A DNA stretch of 64,000 nt, taken from a virus. Its lineage: Duplodnaviria > Caudoviricetes. Location of the stretch: positions 99,788-163,787 of the IMG/VR virus record IMGVR_UViG_3300019124_000001, one strand, 5' to 3'. Shown piece after piece: positions 487 to 18,836 of the stretch. Numbering within the stretch: position 1 is the stretch's first letter; the number at the start of each line of letters is the position of its first letter. The notes under the pieces are model-generated. The model saw only the letters and a list, made by a program, of their open reading frames with translations. It was not told the origin of the DNA and made no database searches. A program made the position numbers and the translations under genes.

Positions 487-534
487 CCTTCTAATTCTCT
501 CTACAAACAACAACTATGTATGGTGGTGAATGAT

Positions 535-1266
535 TTGCGTATCGGTGGACGCGGAATGCGAGTAGTTAACGATATGCCCTTTAATGACATCTTAAAAATC
601 ACGCAGATGGCAGTTAATAGGTTTAAGCATTGCGGATTGCAACGTCTTGGCGGTGGAGAGTATGGCAACGTATACCTCTACATTGATACCAACGGCAAGA
701 AGTATGCGATTAAGGTGTGGAATGATAGGCATATCAATCATGACGCAGACATTGATTTTCTGCTGAAACTTCAGGGTAGCGAATATTTTCCAAAGGTCTA
801 CATGTATAAACGTAAGGGTTTTCTGGTCATGGAATTTTTCGAAGGAAGAACACTGAAAGAGATTTATGATCCCATTAGCAGAGAAATTGCAGATAATACT
901 GGTAAAACTCGAATCAAAAATATTCACAATGGAATCCAACACATCGAAAAGGCATTTCGATTTGCTATGTCGCGTGGACTCTTGCCATTCGACACTCACG
1001 GCAATAACATTGTTGCAACGCCAGATGGCAGACTGAGATTTATAGATGTTGGCTTGTTTGAAGAACTTAAAGTAAAATACAAAATTCTTCGCTGGAAAAA
1101 CTCTGTAAGGCTCAGAAGCAACAAAGACTTCATTCGTCAGGTTAGTCGCGATCTTAATTACTACAACGAATTCAACAAAGCTAAAAGTGCTTTTGAGGAA
1201 GCGAAGAAAGCTATTGTTGAGGAAGCAACGCAAGCTATCATTAAGGAACGACAGAGGATATGTTAA
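535..1266 (+). CDS. Ser/Thr protein kinase-like protein (paralogue 1)
   Basis: GGGEYG Gly-loop, YAIK, DTHGNN catalytic loop, IDVG; TTG start at 535 after GGTGGTG RBS. Confidence 0.85.
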   Translation: MRIGGRGMRVVNDMPFNDILKITQMAVNRFKHCGLQRLGGGEYGNVYLYIDTNGKKYAIKVWNDRHINHDADIDFLLKLQGSEYFPKVYMYKRKGFLVMEFFEGRTLKEIYDPISREIADNTGKTRIKNIHNGIQHIEKAFRFAMSRGLLPFDTHGNNIVATPDGRLRFIDVGLFEELKVKYKILRWKNSVRLRSNKDFIRQVSRDLNYYNEFNKAKSAFEEAKKAIVEEATQAIIKERQRIC

Positions 1267-1304
1267 CTTTCTACAAACAATAACTATGTATGGCGGTGAA
1301 CTTA

Positions 1305-2024
1305 ATGAGAATCGGTGGACGCGGAATGAAGGTAGTTAATCATATGCCATTTAAGGATATCTTGAAGATTACACAAATGGCAGTTAGTCGGTTTCGGGAT
1401 TGCGGTCTGACTAGAATTGGAGGTGGGAAGTTCGGAGATGTATATCTGTATATCGACAGCAATAGTCAGAAATATGCAATCAAAGTATGGAAAGTATACT
1501 ACGACAATGAAGATCACGACATCGAAAATTTGCTTCGTCTTCAAGGTAGTAAGTATTTTCCTAAGATTTACATGTACAAGAAGAGAAGTTTTCTCGTAAT
1601 GGAGTATTTTGATGGCAGAACTTTAGCGGAAATTTTCAGCAAACATGATAGAGAGAGGGCTGACAAAATCGGCAAACCTGCAATCAAATACATTCATGAT
1701 GGCAACAAGTCTATCGAAGAAGCATTTAAGTTTGCGGTTTCTCGTGGGCTTGCACCAAACGATACTCACGGCAATAACATTATAGTTACGAAAGAAGGAG
1801 AACTAAAATTTATAGACGTTGGCTTATTCGAGGAACTTAAAGTTAGATACCACAGATGGCACGACTATAATGGCAAGGTGGTTTATAATAACAATAAGGA
1901 TCTCGTTGAAAGCATAAAACGGGACATTACAAACTGCTTCGAGCTTGAATACGCAAAAGGCCAATATCAATCAGCGTTTAATGCATTAGTTGAACAACAA
2001 GCAAAAGAGCTAGCCTCTATTTAA
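1305..2024 (+). CDS. Ser/Thr protein kinase-like protein (paralogue 2)
   Basis: GGGKFG, YAIK, DTHGNN, IDVG; strongly similar to paralogue 1; ATG at 1305. Confidence 0.85.
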   Translation: MRIGGRGMKVVNHMPFKDILKITQMAVSRFRDCGLTRIGGGKFGDVYLYIDSNSQKYAIKVWKVYYDNEDHDIENLLRLQGSKYFPKIYMYKKRSFLVMEYFDGRTLAEIFSKHDRERADKIGKPAIKYIHDGNKSIEEAFKFAVSRGLAPNDTHGNNIIVTKEGELKFIDVGLFEELKVRYHRWHDYNGKVVYNNNKDLVESIKRDITNCFELEYAKGQYQSAFNALVEQQAKELASI

Positions 2025-2061
2025 CTATCAAACAACAACTATGTATGGTAGGTGATAGGCA

Positions 2062-2787
2062 TTGAAACAAGATAAAGGAATGCAGATACTTGGAGACATT
2101 GATCTGATAGATGCTACTATGATCATGAAAATGGCTATCAGTCGATTTTCAGATTGTGATCTTAAATGTATTGGAGAAGGTGTCTATGGTCGCGTTCTGC
2201 TTTATGTGGGACGAGAGGGTCGGAAGTATGCCATAAAGGTATTCAAGAGCAACTATTCGATGCTCGATATGGATGACATAGACAAACTCTTGGCTTTGCA
2301 AGGTTGTGAACACTACCCAAAAGTATTTATGTATCAACGCGGATCGTTTATGGTGACTGAATTTATTGATGGTCGCACTCTTTATGAAATTCACTGCATT
2401 CAAGAGCGCTCTTTTGCAAACAGACTTCGCAAACCAATCATAGACAAAATGGAAAATCCTATTGAACAATACAAAAATGCATACAAATATGCTTTATCTC
2501 GTGGATTCGCACCTTATGATACGCATGGTGATAACATTATGGTAACTCCGCATGGTAGACTTGTAATCGTTGATGTTGGCTGTTTTGCTAAGTTTCACCG
2601 TAAACTAATTATCCCAATGTGGGCTTCTGAAAACAAGAAGAAGTTTTCTCAATCGGAACTTCTTCAAGCTCTGAAAGCTGATAAAGGAAATTTTTGGGGA
2701 TACCACAATGGTGTGGAAGCCATCAAAGAGTGCGAGATTCATTTAAAAACACACAAAACAAATGGACAGGAGTTGCAACCAGCATGA
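2062..2787 (+). CDS. Ser/Thr protein kinase-like protein (paralogue 3)
   Basis: GEGVYG, YAIK, DTHGDN, VDVG. Confidence 0.85.
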   Translation: MKQDKGMQILGDIDLIDATMIMKMAISRFSDCDLKCIGEGVYGRVLLYVGREGRKYAIKVFKSNYSMLDMDDIDKLLALQGCEHYPKVFMYQRGSFMVTEFIDGRTLYEIHCIQERSFANRLRKPIIDKMENPIEQYKNAYKYALSRGFAPYDTHGDNIMVTPHGRLVIVDVGCFAKFHRKLIIPMWASENKKKFSQSELLQALKADKGNFWGYHNGVEAIKECEIHLKTHKTNGQELQPA

Positions 2788-3080
2788 TCGTAAACTTTGA
2801 AAACATCTCCGCAGAAAAGAAAAAGGTATACGCAGAAGATATCGTTCTCTTTGCAGAAGAAGTATTTGGAATGGATGGACGTGTCATGACCATCTCTGAA
2901 GGACATACCATTCAGCGAGTCAAACTACAGACATGGGAACGTGTTCGACTTCGTAATTACCAAGAGTACACAACCACCGCAACATCGTACCATGCGTATG
3001 TTCGACCAACAAATATCGAAAATGACTATCTCCGCGAAGTTTACGAAGCGCACCAAAGTCTGCTGAAAGAGGTGACTTAA
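2784..3080 (+). CDS. Hypothetical protein
   Basis: ATG at 2784 overlapping kinase 3 stop (ATGA), AGGAG RBS. Confidence 0.6.
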   Translation: MIVNFENISAEKKKVYAEDIVLFAEEVFGMDGRVMTISEGHTIQRVKLQTWERVRLRNYQEYTTTATSYHAYVRPTNIENDYLREVYEAHQSLLKEVT

Positions 3081-3226
3081 TGCAAAATAATAAGGAGTTG
3101 TTGGCTAATGCTATGGAAGCAATAGCAAAAATTGACCTTGATCAAGAAAGTTCTGCATTCGAATGTCATCTGAAACTTGCCCTAGAATAATTGGAAGATT
3201 GTTACAGATGGGCTAATGAAGGTTAG
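3080..3226 (+). pseudogene. Small ORF, possibly interrupted by a premature TAA at 3188
   Basis: GAGGTG RBS; 36 codons, TAA, then 11 more sense codons to an in-frame TAG (3224) inside a palindromic site. Confidence 0.35.
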
Positions 3227-3282
3227 ATGAAAATGCACTTGTTTAATAAAATATCGGTTTGATAGACAGAAGGGGGACAAGT

Positions 3283-3489
3283 ATGTATACCGATTGGGAG
3301 CTTGAAAACACCGTAAAAACGATGGAAAGTAACTTTATTGACAGAGGTTGTGTCAATATCGTCAATCTCGATGAAGCAAAGAAGTTTTCCACTTATCTCA
3401 AAATCAAAGGTTATCAAGTAGAGATCAAAGACAGCAACCTTTATTTTCCTGTTGCTAGAAGCTACGATGTAATCAAAGTAGACCGATAA
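3283..3489 (+). CDS. Small hypothetical protein (site-bounded)
   Basis: AGGGGG RBS, ATG 3283; stop TAA lies in the left arm of the 3483 site. Confidence 0.7.
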   Translation: MYTDWELENTVKTMESNFIDRGCVNIVNLDEAKKFSTYLKIKGYQVEIKDSNLYFPVARSYDVIKVDR

Positions 3490-3522
3490 AACGAAAATTT
3501 CATCTAAAGGAGGTGAGCTACA

Positions 3523-3606
3523 GTGAAAAAACGAAGAACCAATCCGCTTGCTTTGGGTCTTGGAGTTTTTGTTGGCTTTGTAGTTTATCACATCTTGACA
3601 AAATAG
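3523..3606 (+). CDS. 27-aa single-pass membrane peptide
   Basis: AAGGAGGTG RBS right after the site; MKKRRTNPLALGLGVFVGFVVYHILTK. Confidence 0.6.
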   Translation: MKKRRTNPLALGLGVFVGFVVYHILTK

Positions 3607-3618
3607 GGAGTGTTCGCA

Positions 3619-3957
3619 ATGTCCTTGCGAATTTTGGATGGCATTATTGCAGAAAAGGTACACGGATGGGAGTGGCACCAAGTCACTGAGAACCGAAAAA
3701 TCTTAGTGCCACCGATTAACGATCATCGTAGCACTTGGGCGGCAATGTGGGACGAGAATGGTTTTCCGCATTGGTTGCCAGAATATCGACATGAAGCAAT
3801 TGGGATTCGATTCGACTCGACATATGAATCTGGTCGGGTGACTGGATTTGACGAAGATGGAGACATTTTCGTTGAGATTTTCTTAAAATCGACTGGTCAG
3901 ACCTATACTGAGCTTTGGTTTAAGGAATCTTTGCTCAATAGAGAACTACTAAGGTAG
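3619..3957 (+). CDS. Hypothetical protein, N-terminus like phage ABA-sandwich domain
   Basis: LDGIIAEKVHGW...LPEY pattern; stop TAG in the left arm of the 3955 site. Confidence 0.55.
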   Translation: MSLRILDGIIAEKVHGWEWHQVTENRKILVPPINDHRSTWAAMWDENGFPHWLPEYRHEAIGIRFDSTYESGRVTGFDEDGDIFVEIFLKSTGQTYTELWFKESLLNRELLR

Positions 3958-3993
3958 ACAAAACTTAGTTTTCATCTAAAGGGGAGTACAAAA

Positions 3994-4293
3994 ATGTACA
4001 AAATTGGTGATGCAGTAATGATTTCGAGGAACTTGGCAGAACGTTATAATATCAATCATGAACATAGGAATGGAATTGTAACAAGTGTAGAGGGTTATAT
4101 GCTAAAGATTTCAAATCCATTATGGAAAAATCAAGAAGGTTGTTTGATTGGTAGTTTCAATGAATCAGATTTCGATGTCATTAACTCCCATAGTGTTATT
4201 ATAGGCAAAGATATACTTGATCATCTTCTTAATTTGCCTATTGTTGAAATTTCCGCTAAATTATCGAACGGAAAGCAGATTGAAATTCGATAA
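3994..4293 (+). CDS. Hypothetical protein (SH3/KOW-like MYKIGDAV start), site-bounded
   Basis: AAGGGGAG RBS after site; stop in the next site. Confidence 0.7.
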   Translation: MYKIGDAVMISRNLAERYNINHEHRNGIVTSVEGYMLKISNPLWKNQEGCLIGSFNESDFDVINSHSVIIGKDILDHLLNLPIVEISAKLSNGKQIEIR

Positions 4294-8580: not shown

Positions 8581-9240
8581 TTGAACGAAATTACCGAACT
8601 TCAAGAGCTTGATCTTCCTGCTGAAATCTATTTCATGCGTGGCTTTGCTTTGGGCAGTGGGTACAATGAACTTTATAGGTCTATTAGTTGTGCGCTCATC
8701 GAACACCGCAAACAAGCTCGTAATGGTGGTCAACCGTATGCAACACACCCGATTCGATGTGCCCACATGTTGGTAACTCACGGTGTTCGCGATGAGCGTA
8801 TCCTGTCTACAGTTGTTCTGCATGATGTACCTGAAGATTGTGGCGCAAGCAAAGAAGACCTGATTCATATGTATGGAATCAGTGAAGATGTTGCTTACTT
8901 AGCAACAGTGCTCGACAAAAGACGGTACAAATCCACTGAGGATTACTACTTGTCTCTTCGACAGTACATTGAAACTATTCTTACAAAAATTGTAGACCGT
9001 TGTCATAATCTTGCTACAATGGTTAACGTTTTCTCTGAAAAAAGGATGAAGAAATATATCGAGGAGACAGAAGAGTATGTGATTCCCCTCTGTCAATATG
9101 CAGTTCTCCATCATCCCGAATATTCGAACGTAGTATTTGCATTAAAGCGTCATATCGTTGATATGCTCACCATTCTAAAAGCCCTTCTTCCAAAGGATCA
9201 TTTGGACGAAGAAATGATAGGAGCGACATGTTCATTATGA
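8581..9240 (+). CDS. HD-domain (p)ppGpp hydrolase-like protein (small alarmone hydrolase/Mesh1 type)
   Basis: HRKQAR..G.PYATHP, LHDVPED, KIVDRCHN motifs of the RelA/SpoT hydrolase domain; no synthetase domain. Confidence 0.85.
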   Translation: MNEITELQELDLPAEIYFMRGFALGSGYNELYRSISCALIEHRKQARNGGQPYATHPIRCAHMLVTHGVRDERILSTVVLHDVPEDCGASKEDLIHMYGISEDVAYLATVLDKRRYKSTEDYYLSLRQYIETILTKIVDRCHNLATMVNVFSEKRMKKYIEETEEYVIPLCQYAVLHHPEYSNVVFALKRHIVDMLTILKALLPKDHLDEEMIGATCSL

Positions 9241-9413
9241 TTTGGGTTTTATATCGAAACGGCGAACTGTTCGGAAATGGCTCAAACATTCGTGCCTATG
9301 CTTCCGAAAAGAGGGCAATGGCAAACGCATTGGCTATTGTTCGTAATGGAATTGGGACATATAAGATTGAAGAATTTAAGGCTGTACCCTATATGCCTAA
9401 AGAGGTGAAATAG
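9228..9413 (+). CDS. Hypothetical protein
   Basis: Short ORF with AGGAG RBS. Confidence 0.5.
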   Translation: MFIMIWVLYRNGELFGNGSNIRAYASEKRAMANALAIVRNGIGTYKIEEFKAVPYMPKEVK

Positions 9414-9416
9414 CAT

Positions 9417-9626
9417 ATGCCGCTAATCCTGCTGATTGTTTCAATTGGTTTGGCATTTGTGCCAATGTGGTTCTTTATTTTGGTTGCGTGTATAGCAACA
9501 GTCTACGTTGTTATTATTGCATCTCAACTGAACTGCATATTGGAAGCATTCATTGCAATGGTGTTCGTATGGATTATCCTTTATGGATTAAGATACCTAA
9601 TTCATCACTTGCAATGGGTGAACTAG
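9417..9626 (+). CDS. Small membrane protein
   Basis: Very hydrophobic 69 aa, GAGGTG RBS. Confidence 0.6.
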   Translation: MPLILLIVSIGLAFVPMWFFILVACIATVYVVIIASQLNCILEAFIAMVFVWIILYGLRYLIHHLQWVN

Positions 9627-9644
9627 AAGGAGCGAAAAACAAAC

Positions 9645-10388
9645 ATGGAACGAAAACCTGTAGCAAAAATGCTTGTTGGTTCACACAACTACAACTTGCA
9701 TAATGAGAATTCTGACCGTGATTATAAGCTATTCGTCCTACCAACGTATGACGACTTATATCATGGAACTACCGATCACTTTAAAACCAAGTCTTCGATT
9801 ACGAATACAGAGGATGTAGAAGTCCACGATGTTCGCAGATTGCCGCATTTGCTGGACAAGGCAAATGTGAACTTCATCGAAACTCTTTTCTCTGTATCTC
9901 GTACAACGTGGGACGAAACCACCTACTACACCGATCAATTGTTCGCAATGCGCGAAGAACTTGCGCGTATGAATCTGCCGTATTTGTACAATGCTTCTTT
10001 CGGCATGTTTATCGAACAGAAGAAAAAGTGGGAGAAAGGCGACTACACCGACCATAAGAAAGCGTATCAAGCCCTTCGAATTCTTGATTTTCTTGTTCGA
10101 TACGAGCGCAACAAGTTTGAATCTTTTGGTCAGGCCATCTATTACGAAGCAAGCGACCCAATGCGTAGCTATCTCTTGAAAGCAAAAGCAGGGGAAGTTT
10201 CAATGGGCGATATGAACGTATCTTTGGCTAATTACGAGAACCACGTCAAACTAATTCGTACATCCTACATGTCTCACGAGCGGAATGAAGAAACAAAAAA
10301 GCGTCTTGATAAACTTGTCTACGAAATGGTTGCAATCGAGATCGAGAACGAGTTTATGCGAAAAAAAGACGAAAGCATTTTGTTCTAA
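9645..10388 (+). CDS. Pol-beta superfamily nucleotidyltransferase (RlaP/PF10127-like)
   Basis: VGSHNYNL...SDRD (GS...DxD) motif, KAN.NF.E.L, KK.Y.ALR. Confidence 0.75.
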   Translation: MERKPVAKMLVGSHNYNLHNENSDRDYKLFVLPTYDDLYHGTTDHFKTKSSITNTEDVEVHDVRRLPHLLDKANVNFIETLFSVSRTTWDETTYYTDQLFAMREELARMNLPYLYNASFGMFIEQKKKWEKGDYTDHKKAYQALRILDFLVRYERNKFESFGQAIYYEASDPMRSYLLKAKAGEVSMGDMNVSLANYENHVKLIRTSYMSHERNEETKKRLDKLVYEMVAIEIENEFMRKKDESILF

Positions 10389-16898: not shown

Positions 16899-16940
16899 AT
16901 ACAAAAAGCGGCTATCAAAAATGATAGCCGCTTTTTGTAT
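16899..16940. terminator. Bidirectional intrinsic terminator between thyX and the tRNA-like RNA
   Basis: ATACAAAAAGCGGCTATCA-AAAA-TGATAGCCGCTTTTTGTAT perfect inverted repeat. Confidence 0.9.
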
Positions 16941-16943
16941 AAT

Positions 16944-17216
16944 TGGTGTGGGTGAGGGGATTCGAACCCCCAAGGATGTTTTTGCTGATCCGCAAATAGG
17001 GGCATAACCTCTTCGAAGCAACGAAACCTGATAATTCTCTGCATGGAGAGCGTATCGTGCACTCAATAGCATCGTGCCCGTTGGTACGATGCTTACCATC
17101 GGAGAATAAAAATCAAAGAAGTTATGTACTTTTACCGCAATTGCAGAATCGCTAGTCACAGAGCCTACGAATCGCACCCCTGCGTTTCGCCGTATGCCGT
17201 TTTCTGGTACACCCAC
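16944..17216 (-). ncRNA. 273-nt tRNA-like/tmRNA-like RNA with tRNA-Leu-type shell
   Basis: Acceptor stem GUGGGUG/CACCCAC, A73, encoded CCA, T-arm GGGG-UUCGAAU-CCCC, GG-containing D-loop, variable-arm hairpin GGAU/AUCC, about 190 extra nt where the anticodon arm should be; own promoter and terminator. Confidence 0.8.
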
Positions 17217-18145: not shown

Positions 18146-18175
18146 TTGACAAACAACAACTATGTATGGTAAACT
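18146..18175 (+). promoter_or_regulatory. SigA-type promoter containing the repeat box
   Basis: TTGACA-AACAACAACTATGTATGG-TAAACT. Confidence 0.8.
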
Positions 18176-18195: not shown

Positions 18196-18297
18196 GTGAT
18201 CAAGTACGAAATTATCGAACGACTGCCTAATGATGAAATTCGAGTTAGAGCTACGGAAGGTTTGACAACGTGGATTTTTAAGAGGCTGGTGAAATAA
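18196..18297 (+). CDS. 33-aa hypothetical protein
   Basis: GAGGTGG RBS, GTG start; MIKYEIIERLPNDEIRVRATEGLTTWIFKRLVK. Confidence 0.55.
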   Translation: MIKYEIIERLPNDEIRVRATEGLTTWIFKRLVK

Positions 18298-18465
18298 TTG
18301 GCTGAGTCAAAAGCTAAACGTTTGCGTAAAAAAATGAGTCGCGAAGGAAAACTAGACCCGTCAATTAAGCGACATGGCTGGAACGGCGTAAATCCCGTAC
18401 AGCGTGTAAAACATCATTCAAAGCGGCGTCTGATTGAAGAAGCTCAAAAGAGAGATGAGTACTAA
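18298..18465 (+). CDS. 55-aa BrfA-like alternative ribosome rescue factor candidate
   Basis: MAESKAKRLRKKMSREGKLDPSIKRHGWNGVNPVQRVKHHSKRRLIEEAQKRDEY; basic N-terminus resembles Bacillus BrfA (YqkK) as recalled; TTG start after GGTGA. Confidence 0.6.
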   Translation: MAESKAKRLRKKMSREGKLDPSIKRHGWNGVNPVQRVKHHSKRRLIEEAQKRDEY

Positions 18466-18542
18466 GGTAACCGATGTGAATTTTTCAACATAGAACTAAC
18501 CGTTGTCGGAGTCTCCCAATATATTAGCAGAGGTGAACAATT

Positions 18543-18836
18543 GTGGAAGAAAAACTCGTTGACATTAACCTGCATCAAGATACCACTGGATTCACTCTTT
18601 CTTTATGGTTTGATGATGAATTTATGCCCAAGATAGATATAGCGGAAATTCTTGGCGTAAACATGCCTTTTGGTGATGAATATGTACATTTCATTGGCGA
18701 AGTGATCCGCAGAAATATGGTTGCTTGCGTTGATGGTGGCAAACCAAAAGTAATGGATGTTAAGTACGTCAACAGTCAACGCGCATTCACGATCAATGTT
18801 GATGGGAAAAAAGTTGGCGGCTATATTTTGAACTAA
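18543..18836 (+). CDS. Hypothetical protein
   Basis: 97 aa, GAGGTG RBS. Confidence 0.6.
   Translation: MEEKLVDINLHQDTTGFTLSLWFDDEFMPKIDIAEILGVNMPFGDEYVHFIGEVIRRNMVACVDGGKPKVMDVKYVNSQRAFTINVDGKKVGGYILN

Follow-up and report, generated by a model that had tools for sequence, protein, structure and literature searches.

We analysed a window of 64,000 nucleotides (nt) that forms the final 64 kb of the 163,787-bp IMG/VR virus record IMGVR_UViG_3300019124_000001, a phage genome with direct terminal repeats, with attention to a small gene at 18298-18465 on the + strand (genome position 118,085) whose predicted product resembles the bacterial ribosome rescue factor BrfA (YqkK). The open reading frame (ORF) has a TTG start and 55 codons followed by TAA, and its product, with 17 lysine or arginine, seven aspartate or glutamate and three histidine residues among 55 amino acids (aa), is strongly basic. 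Sequence, profile and model comparisons divide the protein into residues 1-37, which correspond to the conserved N-terminal helices of BrfA and include Arg25 and Arg36, and a diverged, shorter and less basic tail of residues 38-55. A sigma-70-like promoter upstream (18146-18175, + strand; TTGACA, an 18-nt spacer, TAAACT and a TG before the -10 hexamer, 10 of 12 matches) is the consensus copy of a 30-nt element that occurs 23 times in the phage genome. Since the operon's first ORF, a 33-aa frame of no known family with a GTG start (18196-18297, + strand), lies between this promoter and the brfA-like gene, the latter is the second ORF behind the promoter. The TAA of the 33-aa ORF directly abuts the TTG of the brfA-like gene, and a purine-rich Shine-Dalgarno-like stretch (AAGAGG ... 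GGTGA; 18280-18292, + strand) can be read 5-12 nt before the TTG. The next ORF in the operon (18543-18836, + strand; 97 aa, GTG start) belongs to no family; a terminator scan found no terminator between it and the brfA-like gene, and more small + strand ORFs follow downstream without an intervening terminator. An initial annotation had described the gene as a basic 55-aa ORF, second behind the promoter at 18146, and translation, composition and the promoter scan agree with that description. The stretch was present in four DNA runs, all from one biocrust metagenome study, and in no listed RNA run. A separate contig of 928 bp in ENA encodes an identical protein (P0022), and four contigs are recorded for the cluster representative (P0001).

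When the protein was searched with phmmer against 1.84 billion representatives, 21 matches were returned at an expectation value (E) of 1e-3 or below, one of them the protein itself. Three long repetitive matches (P0003, P0016 and P0018) were set aside. The other 17 are small proteins of 50-168 aa whose alignments start at query residue 1-4, and they have in common the motif M-A-K-S-K-A-K-K-x-R ... R-E-G-K-x-D-P ... R-G-x-W-N-G-V-N-P-V-x-R; the recovery of this many small co-linear relatives indicates that the 55-aa ORF is more than chance. Named relatives are recorded as 'hypothetical proteins' of Bacillus sp. HMF5848, Paenibacillus and Peribacillus. A word-indexed protein search returned only the protein's own cluster, and phmmer with the single protein against the PDB gave 0 matches. 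For the profile comparisons we used alignments of 18 sequences (A1), 65 sequences (A5), 19 stop-terminated relatives (A7) and ten sequences (A8). Against 177,635 distinct PDB sequences, the A1 profile had a single match at E <= 10, chain 6szs_y (E 3.9e-4), aligned end to end (1-64 to 1-62). This chain is entered as 'Uncharacterized protein YqkK' and is the BrfA chain in the structure of BrfA and release factor 2 (RF2) on the ribosome. The A5 profile matched the same chain at E 1.5e-6, with the next match at 0.25. The likeness to BrfA that the initial annotation had put forward is thus borne out, as is the BrfA N-terminus that it had quoted, which agrees with 6szs_y; the parallel comparison with ArfA came back empty, with no ArfA chain at E <= 10 in the PDB for the single sequence, A1 or A5.

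The two sequence types are also joined by intermediates. Chromosomal proteins of Paenibacillus sanfengchensis (L008, E 2.6e-5) and Nanhaiella sioensis (L009, E 8.1e-4) reached by way of the Paenibacillus subgroup, match 6szs_y as single sequences and bridge the two types. A classical BrfA set was assembled from 12 sequences without any W-N-G-V-N-P member, including the Bacillus velezensis/amyloliquefaciens protein P0056, which is named yqkK in some records. Comparison by hhalign of the phage protein alone with this set gave a probability of 96.1 (E 3.5e-9; columns 1-42, gap-free), and A7 gave 95.1 (E 3.2e-8); BLASTP against P0056 gave E 1e-5 with 36% identity across 45 aa from residue 1. As a composition control, the protein, its reversal and 20,000 shuffles were scored against a hidden Markov model (HMM) of the classical set, where the real protein came top with 28.8 bits and none of the 20,001 shuffled or reversed decoys reached it. 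Scans of the 55-aa ORF and its neighbours against Pfam, NCBIfam and PHROGs returned nothing relevant. Bacillus YqkK (P0056) itself matches nothing in Pfam or NCBIfam; these two collections hold no BrfA model, so their empty scans are uninformative, which also explains the missing gene annotation. It is very probable that the 55-aa protein belongs to the BrfA/YqkK family.

Arg25 is the sole invariant column of A5 (65 of 65 sequences), and Arg36 is invariant in A8. According to Shimokawa-Chiba et al. (2019; PMC6881298), Arg25 is conserved throughout BrfA sequences and stacks on U1915 of 23S ribosomal RNA, and Arg36 stacks on A1492. The charged residues of the N-terminal helix (K5, K7, R8, R10, K11, K12 and R15) are all present in the phage protein. 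An AlphaFold2 model, with a mean predicted local distance difference test score (pLDDT) of 77.3 and a block mean of 87 across residues 1-20, places helices at 5-16, 21-24 and 41-54; the helices of BrfA lie at 4-17 (alpha-1), 21-25 (alpha-2) and 40-47. In Foldseek against the PDB the sole match at E <= 10 was again 6szs_y, although it is a weak one (E 1.5, TM-score 0.49).

The end of the gene sets it apart from its bacterial counterparts. In B. subtilis, an intrinsic terminator inside the 71-codon brfA ORF gives a non-stop mRNA, and the resulting product of about 62 aa is removed via SsrA tagging (PMC6881298). We found a hairpin followed by a T-run inside the ORF at seven of eight loci from named bacterial genomes and, at codons 59-65, at 18 of the 19 parsed loci of a class sample; the parsing pattern read 19 of the 32 loci in that sample and left out 13, and three of the 19 repeat loci from the set of eight. 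Many metagenome relatives share this arrangement, with hairpins down to -24 kcal/mol. Inside the phage ORF there is no T run of four or more and no hairpin. The nearest T-run, at 18481, comes after the stop, where the preceding sequence reaches -3.5 kcal/mol and forms no hairpin, and the terminator scan found no + strand terminator between 17372 and 18654. The idea that this post-stop T-run is a relic of an ancestral terminator was rejected, as a DNA alignment with the Brevibacillus genes contained no hairpin remnant. The phage gene sits in mid-operon and reads on into the next gene. With a TAA stop and no internal terminator it would escape trans-translation control, as the initial annotation had proposed. 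The non-stop design is a regulatory feature rather than a feature of the protein, and it is absent from the phage copy.

The closest homologues are chromosomal proteins of three Brevibacillus species (P0044, P0046 and P0047), at 57-59% identity. Of 401 scanned genomes of the class, 60 gave matches at E <= 0.01; with the threshold at E < 1e-4 the number was 44, and most genomes had a single match. These loci form a continuum. At one end stands the B. subtilis type (L132, the same protein as the B. velezensis/amyloliquefaciens one called yqkK in some records) and at the other the W-N-G-V-N-P type, with an 'R-S-P-F-A-F' type and then a Laceyella/Thermoactinomyces intermediate between them. The result is a wide, unannotated BrfA-like family (R-G-S-W-N-G-V-N-P-V-T/S-R) in Brevibacillus, Paenibacillus, Thermoactinomycetaceae (Laceyella/Thermoactinomyces) and Jeotgalibacillus, with further records labelled Eubacteriales, Oscillospiraceae, Acetatifactor, Flavonifractor (including Flavonifractor plautii) and Ruminiclostridium, all 'hypothetical'. 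It comprises loci L002-L009, L102-L133 and L022-L101 and proteins P0002-P0212; some clusters are recorded on 1000 or more contigs, and in many members the terminator lies inside the ORF at codons 55-66. PMC6881298 places BrfA in 'a subset of Bacillaceae', 'mainly Bacillus', and the family found here is much wider than that. No literature naming both 'BrfA' and 'Paenibacillus' was found, though the supplementary alignment of PMC6881298 may list wider homologues.

Relatives on viral and mobile DNA were also recovered. Stop-terminated relatives occur on four other IMG/VR contigs (157.8, 109.6, 112.9 and 16.8 kb); endolysin or tail genes flank three of them and the fourth (L010) has a replication-initiation gene, and no synteny was found between the phage and these other viral loci. 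Metagenome contigs contributed 80 further loci with 68 distinct ORFs. Among the neighbours of 12 sampled short-form loci were ParA/ParB with DUF6075, a large serine recombinase, a zeta-toxin-like protein and a YqaJ recombinase. At L079 a stop-terminated BrfA-like gene (3959-4126) begins within 3 nt of the end of an RtcB RNA ligase gene (2631-3956), a pairing that suggests an RNA-repair plus rescue operon. ARAGORN was applied to the flanking sequence fetched for 84 loci with relatives and reported tRNA genes at 12 of them, which fall into four sequence groups, and in ten loci the tRNA genes lie within about 1.1 kb of the relative. On two compost metagenome contigs (L022:3878-4416 and L023:677-1555) the stop-terminated BrfA-like gene stands inside a tRNA array, flanked by tRNA-Ser and tRNA-His/Asp. 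As a plain count, this makes an association of BrfA-like genes with tRNA arrays suggestive only. Separately, viral or metagenome contigs L012 (446-1909) and L074 (518-1981) encode a 488-aa protein about 3 kb upstream of the BrfA-like gene that corresponds to PHROG 850, 'RNA-binding protein' (Pfam DUF2828 plus DUF7788); in both an endolysin lies between the two genes, and L012 also has a tRNA array downstream. Within the phage collection, megablast and blastn of the region gave no match, tblastn of the ORF gave only spurious terminase matches (E 5-8), tblastn of the relative P0012 gave no match, and tblastn of the L030 protein found two unannotated 'Bacteriophage sp.' records. A scan of IMG/VR with the single phage protein returned no relative.

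The initial annotation had also pointed to a tmRNA-like RNA about 1.1 kb away and had suggested that it forms a phage-encoded ribosome rescue module with the brfA-like gene. An RNA-like element of about 272 nt does lie at 16944-17215 on the - strand, 1083 nt upstream of the brfA-like gene and on the opposite strand. It has a TATAAT-like box ahead of a 7-bp acceptor stem, and its 3' end consists of a 5-bp T-stem with a TTCGAAT loop, the 3' acceptor strand and an encoded ACCA; a strong 19-bp terminator hairpin follows (16899-16940, - strand), and the fold z-score is -2.2. The element has tRNA-like ends and lies at the distance given earlier, but it is not recognisable as a transfer-messenger RNA (tmRNA). 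ARAGORN reports 0 tmRNA genes, and the Rfam model RF00023 reaches 12 bits where its cut-off requires 47, matching a 15-nt T-loop only (model 348-362), a match that the phage's ordinary tRNAs give likewise. The mark for tmRNA alanylation (alanine identity) is a G3:U70 pair, and the acceptor pair 3:70 in this element is G:C. At default settings ARAGORN made no tRNA call; under relaxed settings it called a 'tRNA-Ile with 181-nt intron', which was forced and is not trusted. Rfam at gathering and E-value thresholds gave no family for the element, and no relatives were found by blastn against the phage collection or by an exact IMG/VR scan for the 3' end. Neither an SmpB gene nor an RF-1-domain gene was found in the phage. 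As the RNA lies on the other strand, behind another gene and promoter, a module with the brfA-like gene is unsupported, and the only tie between the two is the distance of 1.1 kb.

The + strand surroundings of the gene are devoted to nucleotide and DNA metabolism, with NrdI/E/F, ThyX, a cytosine methyltransferase-like ORF and DNA ligase, and the same block also includes thymidine kinase, RNase H and the Pol III alpha subunit. The nearest named phages by ThyX infect Bacillus pumilus and Brevibacillus laterosporus (42-45% identity). Elsewhere in the window, positions 520-2784 (+ strand) carry three tandem paralogous ORFs of 241-248 aa with weak protein-kinase/ABC1-like domain matches. At 8581-10385 (+ strand) an ORF with an HD_4 domain (RelA/SpoT-type HD) accompanies an ORF matching RlaP ('RNA repair pathway DNA polymerase beta family', E 1.8e-7), and these two are hints of further RNA or translation-stress functions in the phage. 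The 30-nt element that supplies the promoter at 18146 has the core ACAAACAACAACTATGTATGG and reaches its 23 genome copies at up to seven mismatches, 21 of them on the + strand (genome 24.7-126.6 kb); the copies in the window begin at 500, 2025, 7713, 10539, 17321, 18146 and 26777. Many copies are TTGACA-18-TAnnnT promoters with an almost invariant spacer, and others lack the hexamers and run into a Shine-Dalgarno-like GGAGG or GGTGG. The element may be a phage-specific promoter or operator family. Outside the window, at genome 5,072-10,648, the minus strand carries 29 tRNA genes, two of which have CUA and UCA anticodons and are labelled Pyl and SeC by ARAGORN. Stop-codon recoding was considered as the reason for these two tRNAs and set aside: a crude stop-to-stop frame scan showed nothing clear, and the phage uses each of the three stop codons.

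Judged by its sequence, the gene is a virus-borne, stop-terminated and short-tailed homologue of BrfA, most likely captured from a Brevibacillus-like host. On balance we lean towards the view that the 55-aa protein works, by analogy with BrfA, as an RF2-dependent ribosome rescue factor. Going by its homology to BrfA, the protein would use its N-terminal helices to bind the decoding centre and H69/H71, the key contact being made by Arg25, and RF2 would dock on its central WNGVNPVQR segment, whereupon peptidyl-tRNA would be hydrolysed on ribosomes stalled without a stop codon. Because bacterial brfA is transcribed as a non-stop mRNA, tagging by tmRNA keeps the amount of its product low. With a real stop and a mid-operon place behind a sigma-70-like promoter, the phage protein would be made whatever the state of trans-translation, and the infected cell would gain extra, unregulated rescue capacity.

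Several observations weigh against a BrfA-like rescue function. The first group concerns the segment that contacts the release factor. W28, G30 and P33, which characterise the subfamily, are kept in at least 90% of 65 sequences, and residues 28-34 read WNGVNPV where 6szs_y has TPSFSTH. The central BrfA segment 30-40, which includes Phe31, His34 and Arg36, contacts RF2 (PMC6881298); in the phage protein Arg36 is kept but the other two are replaced by Val31 and Val34, and the whole WNGVNP subfamily departs from classical BrfA in this stretch. The tail differs more strongly. In BrfA, Lys49-His50 and the basic residues 48-55 occupy the mRNA channel, where they would clash with full-length mRNA, and in B. 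subtilis the K49-H50 pair contacts U534 of 16S ribosomal RNA (PMC6881298). At the aligned positions the phage protein has no Lys-His pair and no basic 48-55 segment: in the ungapped alignment with B. subtilis BrfA, A49-Q50 stand opposite K49-H50. Compared with the Brevibacillus relatives, it has three extra residues after Arg36 and ends at the Lys-His position, with E54-Y55 opposite; it lacks both the basic residues that follow there and the end encoded by the terminator. The net charge of residues 38-55 is +2, though with a basic patch at 38-44 (K38 H39 H40, K42 R43 R44), and short stop-terminated forms with a similar tail are also found elsewhere. Doubt over whether this tail still senses an empty mRNA channel is the main reason why our confidence in the function is close to even. 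A low cross-species compatibility of BrfA with RF2 has been reported (PMC6881298). The phage's tRNA array lies about 107 kb from the brfA-like gene and is not adjacent to it. Lastly, the best decoy of the composition control scored 26.6 bits, with the next at 15.9; with one decoy this close to the real score, the single-sequence link to BrfA, which we consider sound but not overwhelming, owes part of its weight to co-linearity and to the series of intermediates.

The near-miss decoy could be taken to mean that a small basic ORF unrelated to BrfA resembles it by chance, since the protein is short, basic and compositionally biased and matches nothing in Pfam, NCBIfam or PHROGs. This is very improbable. 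Pfam and NCBIfam hold no BrfA model, and YqkK matches nothing there either, while the alignments run co-linearly from the first residue, neither Arg25 nor Arg36 varies, L008 and L009 link the subfamilies and the bacterial homologues share the in-ORF terminator. It is also improbable that the gene is a decaying passenger from a host, truncated and functionless in the phage. It is indeed shorter than the bacterial homologues and lacks their tail, and no close relative was found in other phages of the phage collection or in IMG/VR scanned with the single protein, but the frame is intact, the start (M-A-x-S-K-A-K) is conserved and all family-invariant residues are kept. A Shine-Dalgarno-like site and translational coupling are present, and forms that are about as long and likewise end in a stop codon turn up repeatedly on viral and mobile contigs, several of them and unrelated.

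Two further explanations accept a BrfA-derived protein and change what it does. If the protein were a decoy or inhibitor that takes the BrfA/SmpB site in the decoding centre or titrates RF2 but brings about no productive release, it would block host trans-translation or BrfA rescue, or reduce RF2 activity in favour of read-through by the UCA-anticodon tRNA. A conserved ribosome-binding N-terminus with a diverged tail fits this, as do the CUA- and UCA-anticodon tRNAs that the phage encodes; yet no part of the subfamily is more conserved than the central segment, the RF2-docking region of BrfA, which argues that partner contact is kept, and the frame scan gave no sign of TAG or TGA being read as sense. 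We hold a decoy to be about as doubtful as the passenger. Less doubtful, though still unlikely, is a BrfA-derived factor of altered specificity. Deprived of the basic tail with which BrfA probes for an empty mRNA channel, it would bind ribosomes with a vacant A site whether or not mRNA fills the channel and might free ribosomes stalled by tRNA depletion or cleavage, or might halt host translation by causing RF2-dependent release too early. It is the tail of BrfA that would clash with full-length mRNA, and the phage protein ends at the Lys-His of its homologues with only +2 across residues 38-55, while nothing has been lost from the N-terminal helices, whose contacts with h44, H69 and H71 do not depend on the channel. 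Relatives that travel with tRNA arrays and RtcB also fit such a role. However, the basic patch K38 H39 H40, K42 R43 R44 could still enter the channel, the similarly short tails of many stop-terminated relatives suggest a working design rather than a loss, and release without selectivity would probably be damaging to the phage's own translation. RF2-dependent rescue remains the reading that we prefer.

Release-factor-dependent rescue adaptors (ArfA, ArfT and BrfA) are described as narrowly distributed bacterial back-ups that are held in check by trans-translation. A virus homologue of BrfA from which the tmRNA brake has been removed points to ribosome rescue as a process that phages manipulate, alongside tRNAs. 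No report of a phage-encoded BrfA, ArfA or ArfT was found in the retrieved portions of the full-text literature, including those of PMC11633108 and PMC8012679. More tentatively, and with a good deal of doubt, stop-terminated short-tailed BrfA-like genes could make up an unrecognised class of translation-maintenance genes on phages and mobile elements, with counter-defence among their uses. If so, the class would have escaped tmRNA control and would often travel with tRNA arrays or RtcB. It would keep ribosomes cycling under host defences that cleave RNA or tRNA, or under the phage's own attack on host mRNA, and the shortened tail may widen the substrate to ribosomes with an occupied mRNA channel. 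The gene would then encode a rescue factor that depends on a release factor, the first from a virus, and would represent a new kind of counter-defence. At 55 aa, the protein is of a size at which its activity is quickly testable by the published B. subtilis assays.

It is useful to set the phage gene and its neighbour beside the systems that are known. The RNA-like element resembles tmRNA in its 7-bp acceptor stem, its T-arm, the ACCA encoded at its end and its long insert, but it differs in the G:C pair at 3:70, in its 12 bits with RF00023 and in belonging to a phage without SmpB. With Escherichia coli ArfA the phage protein would share its proposed job, that of a small basic adaptor recruiting RF2 to non-stop ribosomes, although no sequence relationship to ArfA was detected with the family profiles at E <= 10 in the PDB. 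Bacterial ArfA is likewise made from a non-stop mRNA and lacks the N-terminal helices (PMC6881298). The genes of Brevibacillus, Paenibacillus and Thermoactinomycetaceae share with the phage gene the core REGK.DP....RGSWNGVNPV.R; the bacterial BrfA-like genes continue with K-H-R-G-R-L into a hairpin and T-run at codons 59-66, whereas the phage gene stops at the K-H position, without the hairpin. Compared with B. subtilis BrfA itself, the phage copy is 55 aa long and TAA-terminated instead of a 71-codon ORF with an internal terminator, and it is encoded by a phage, but the two have in common a small basic protein, a predicted helix pattern and a co-linear N-terminus (M-A-x-S-x-A-K ... R10 ... 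R15. G17 .. D20 .... R25 ... R36).

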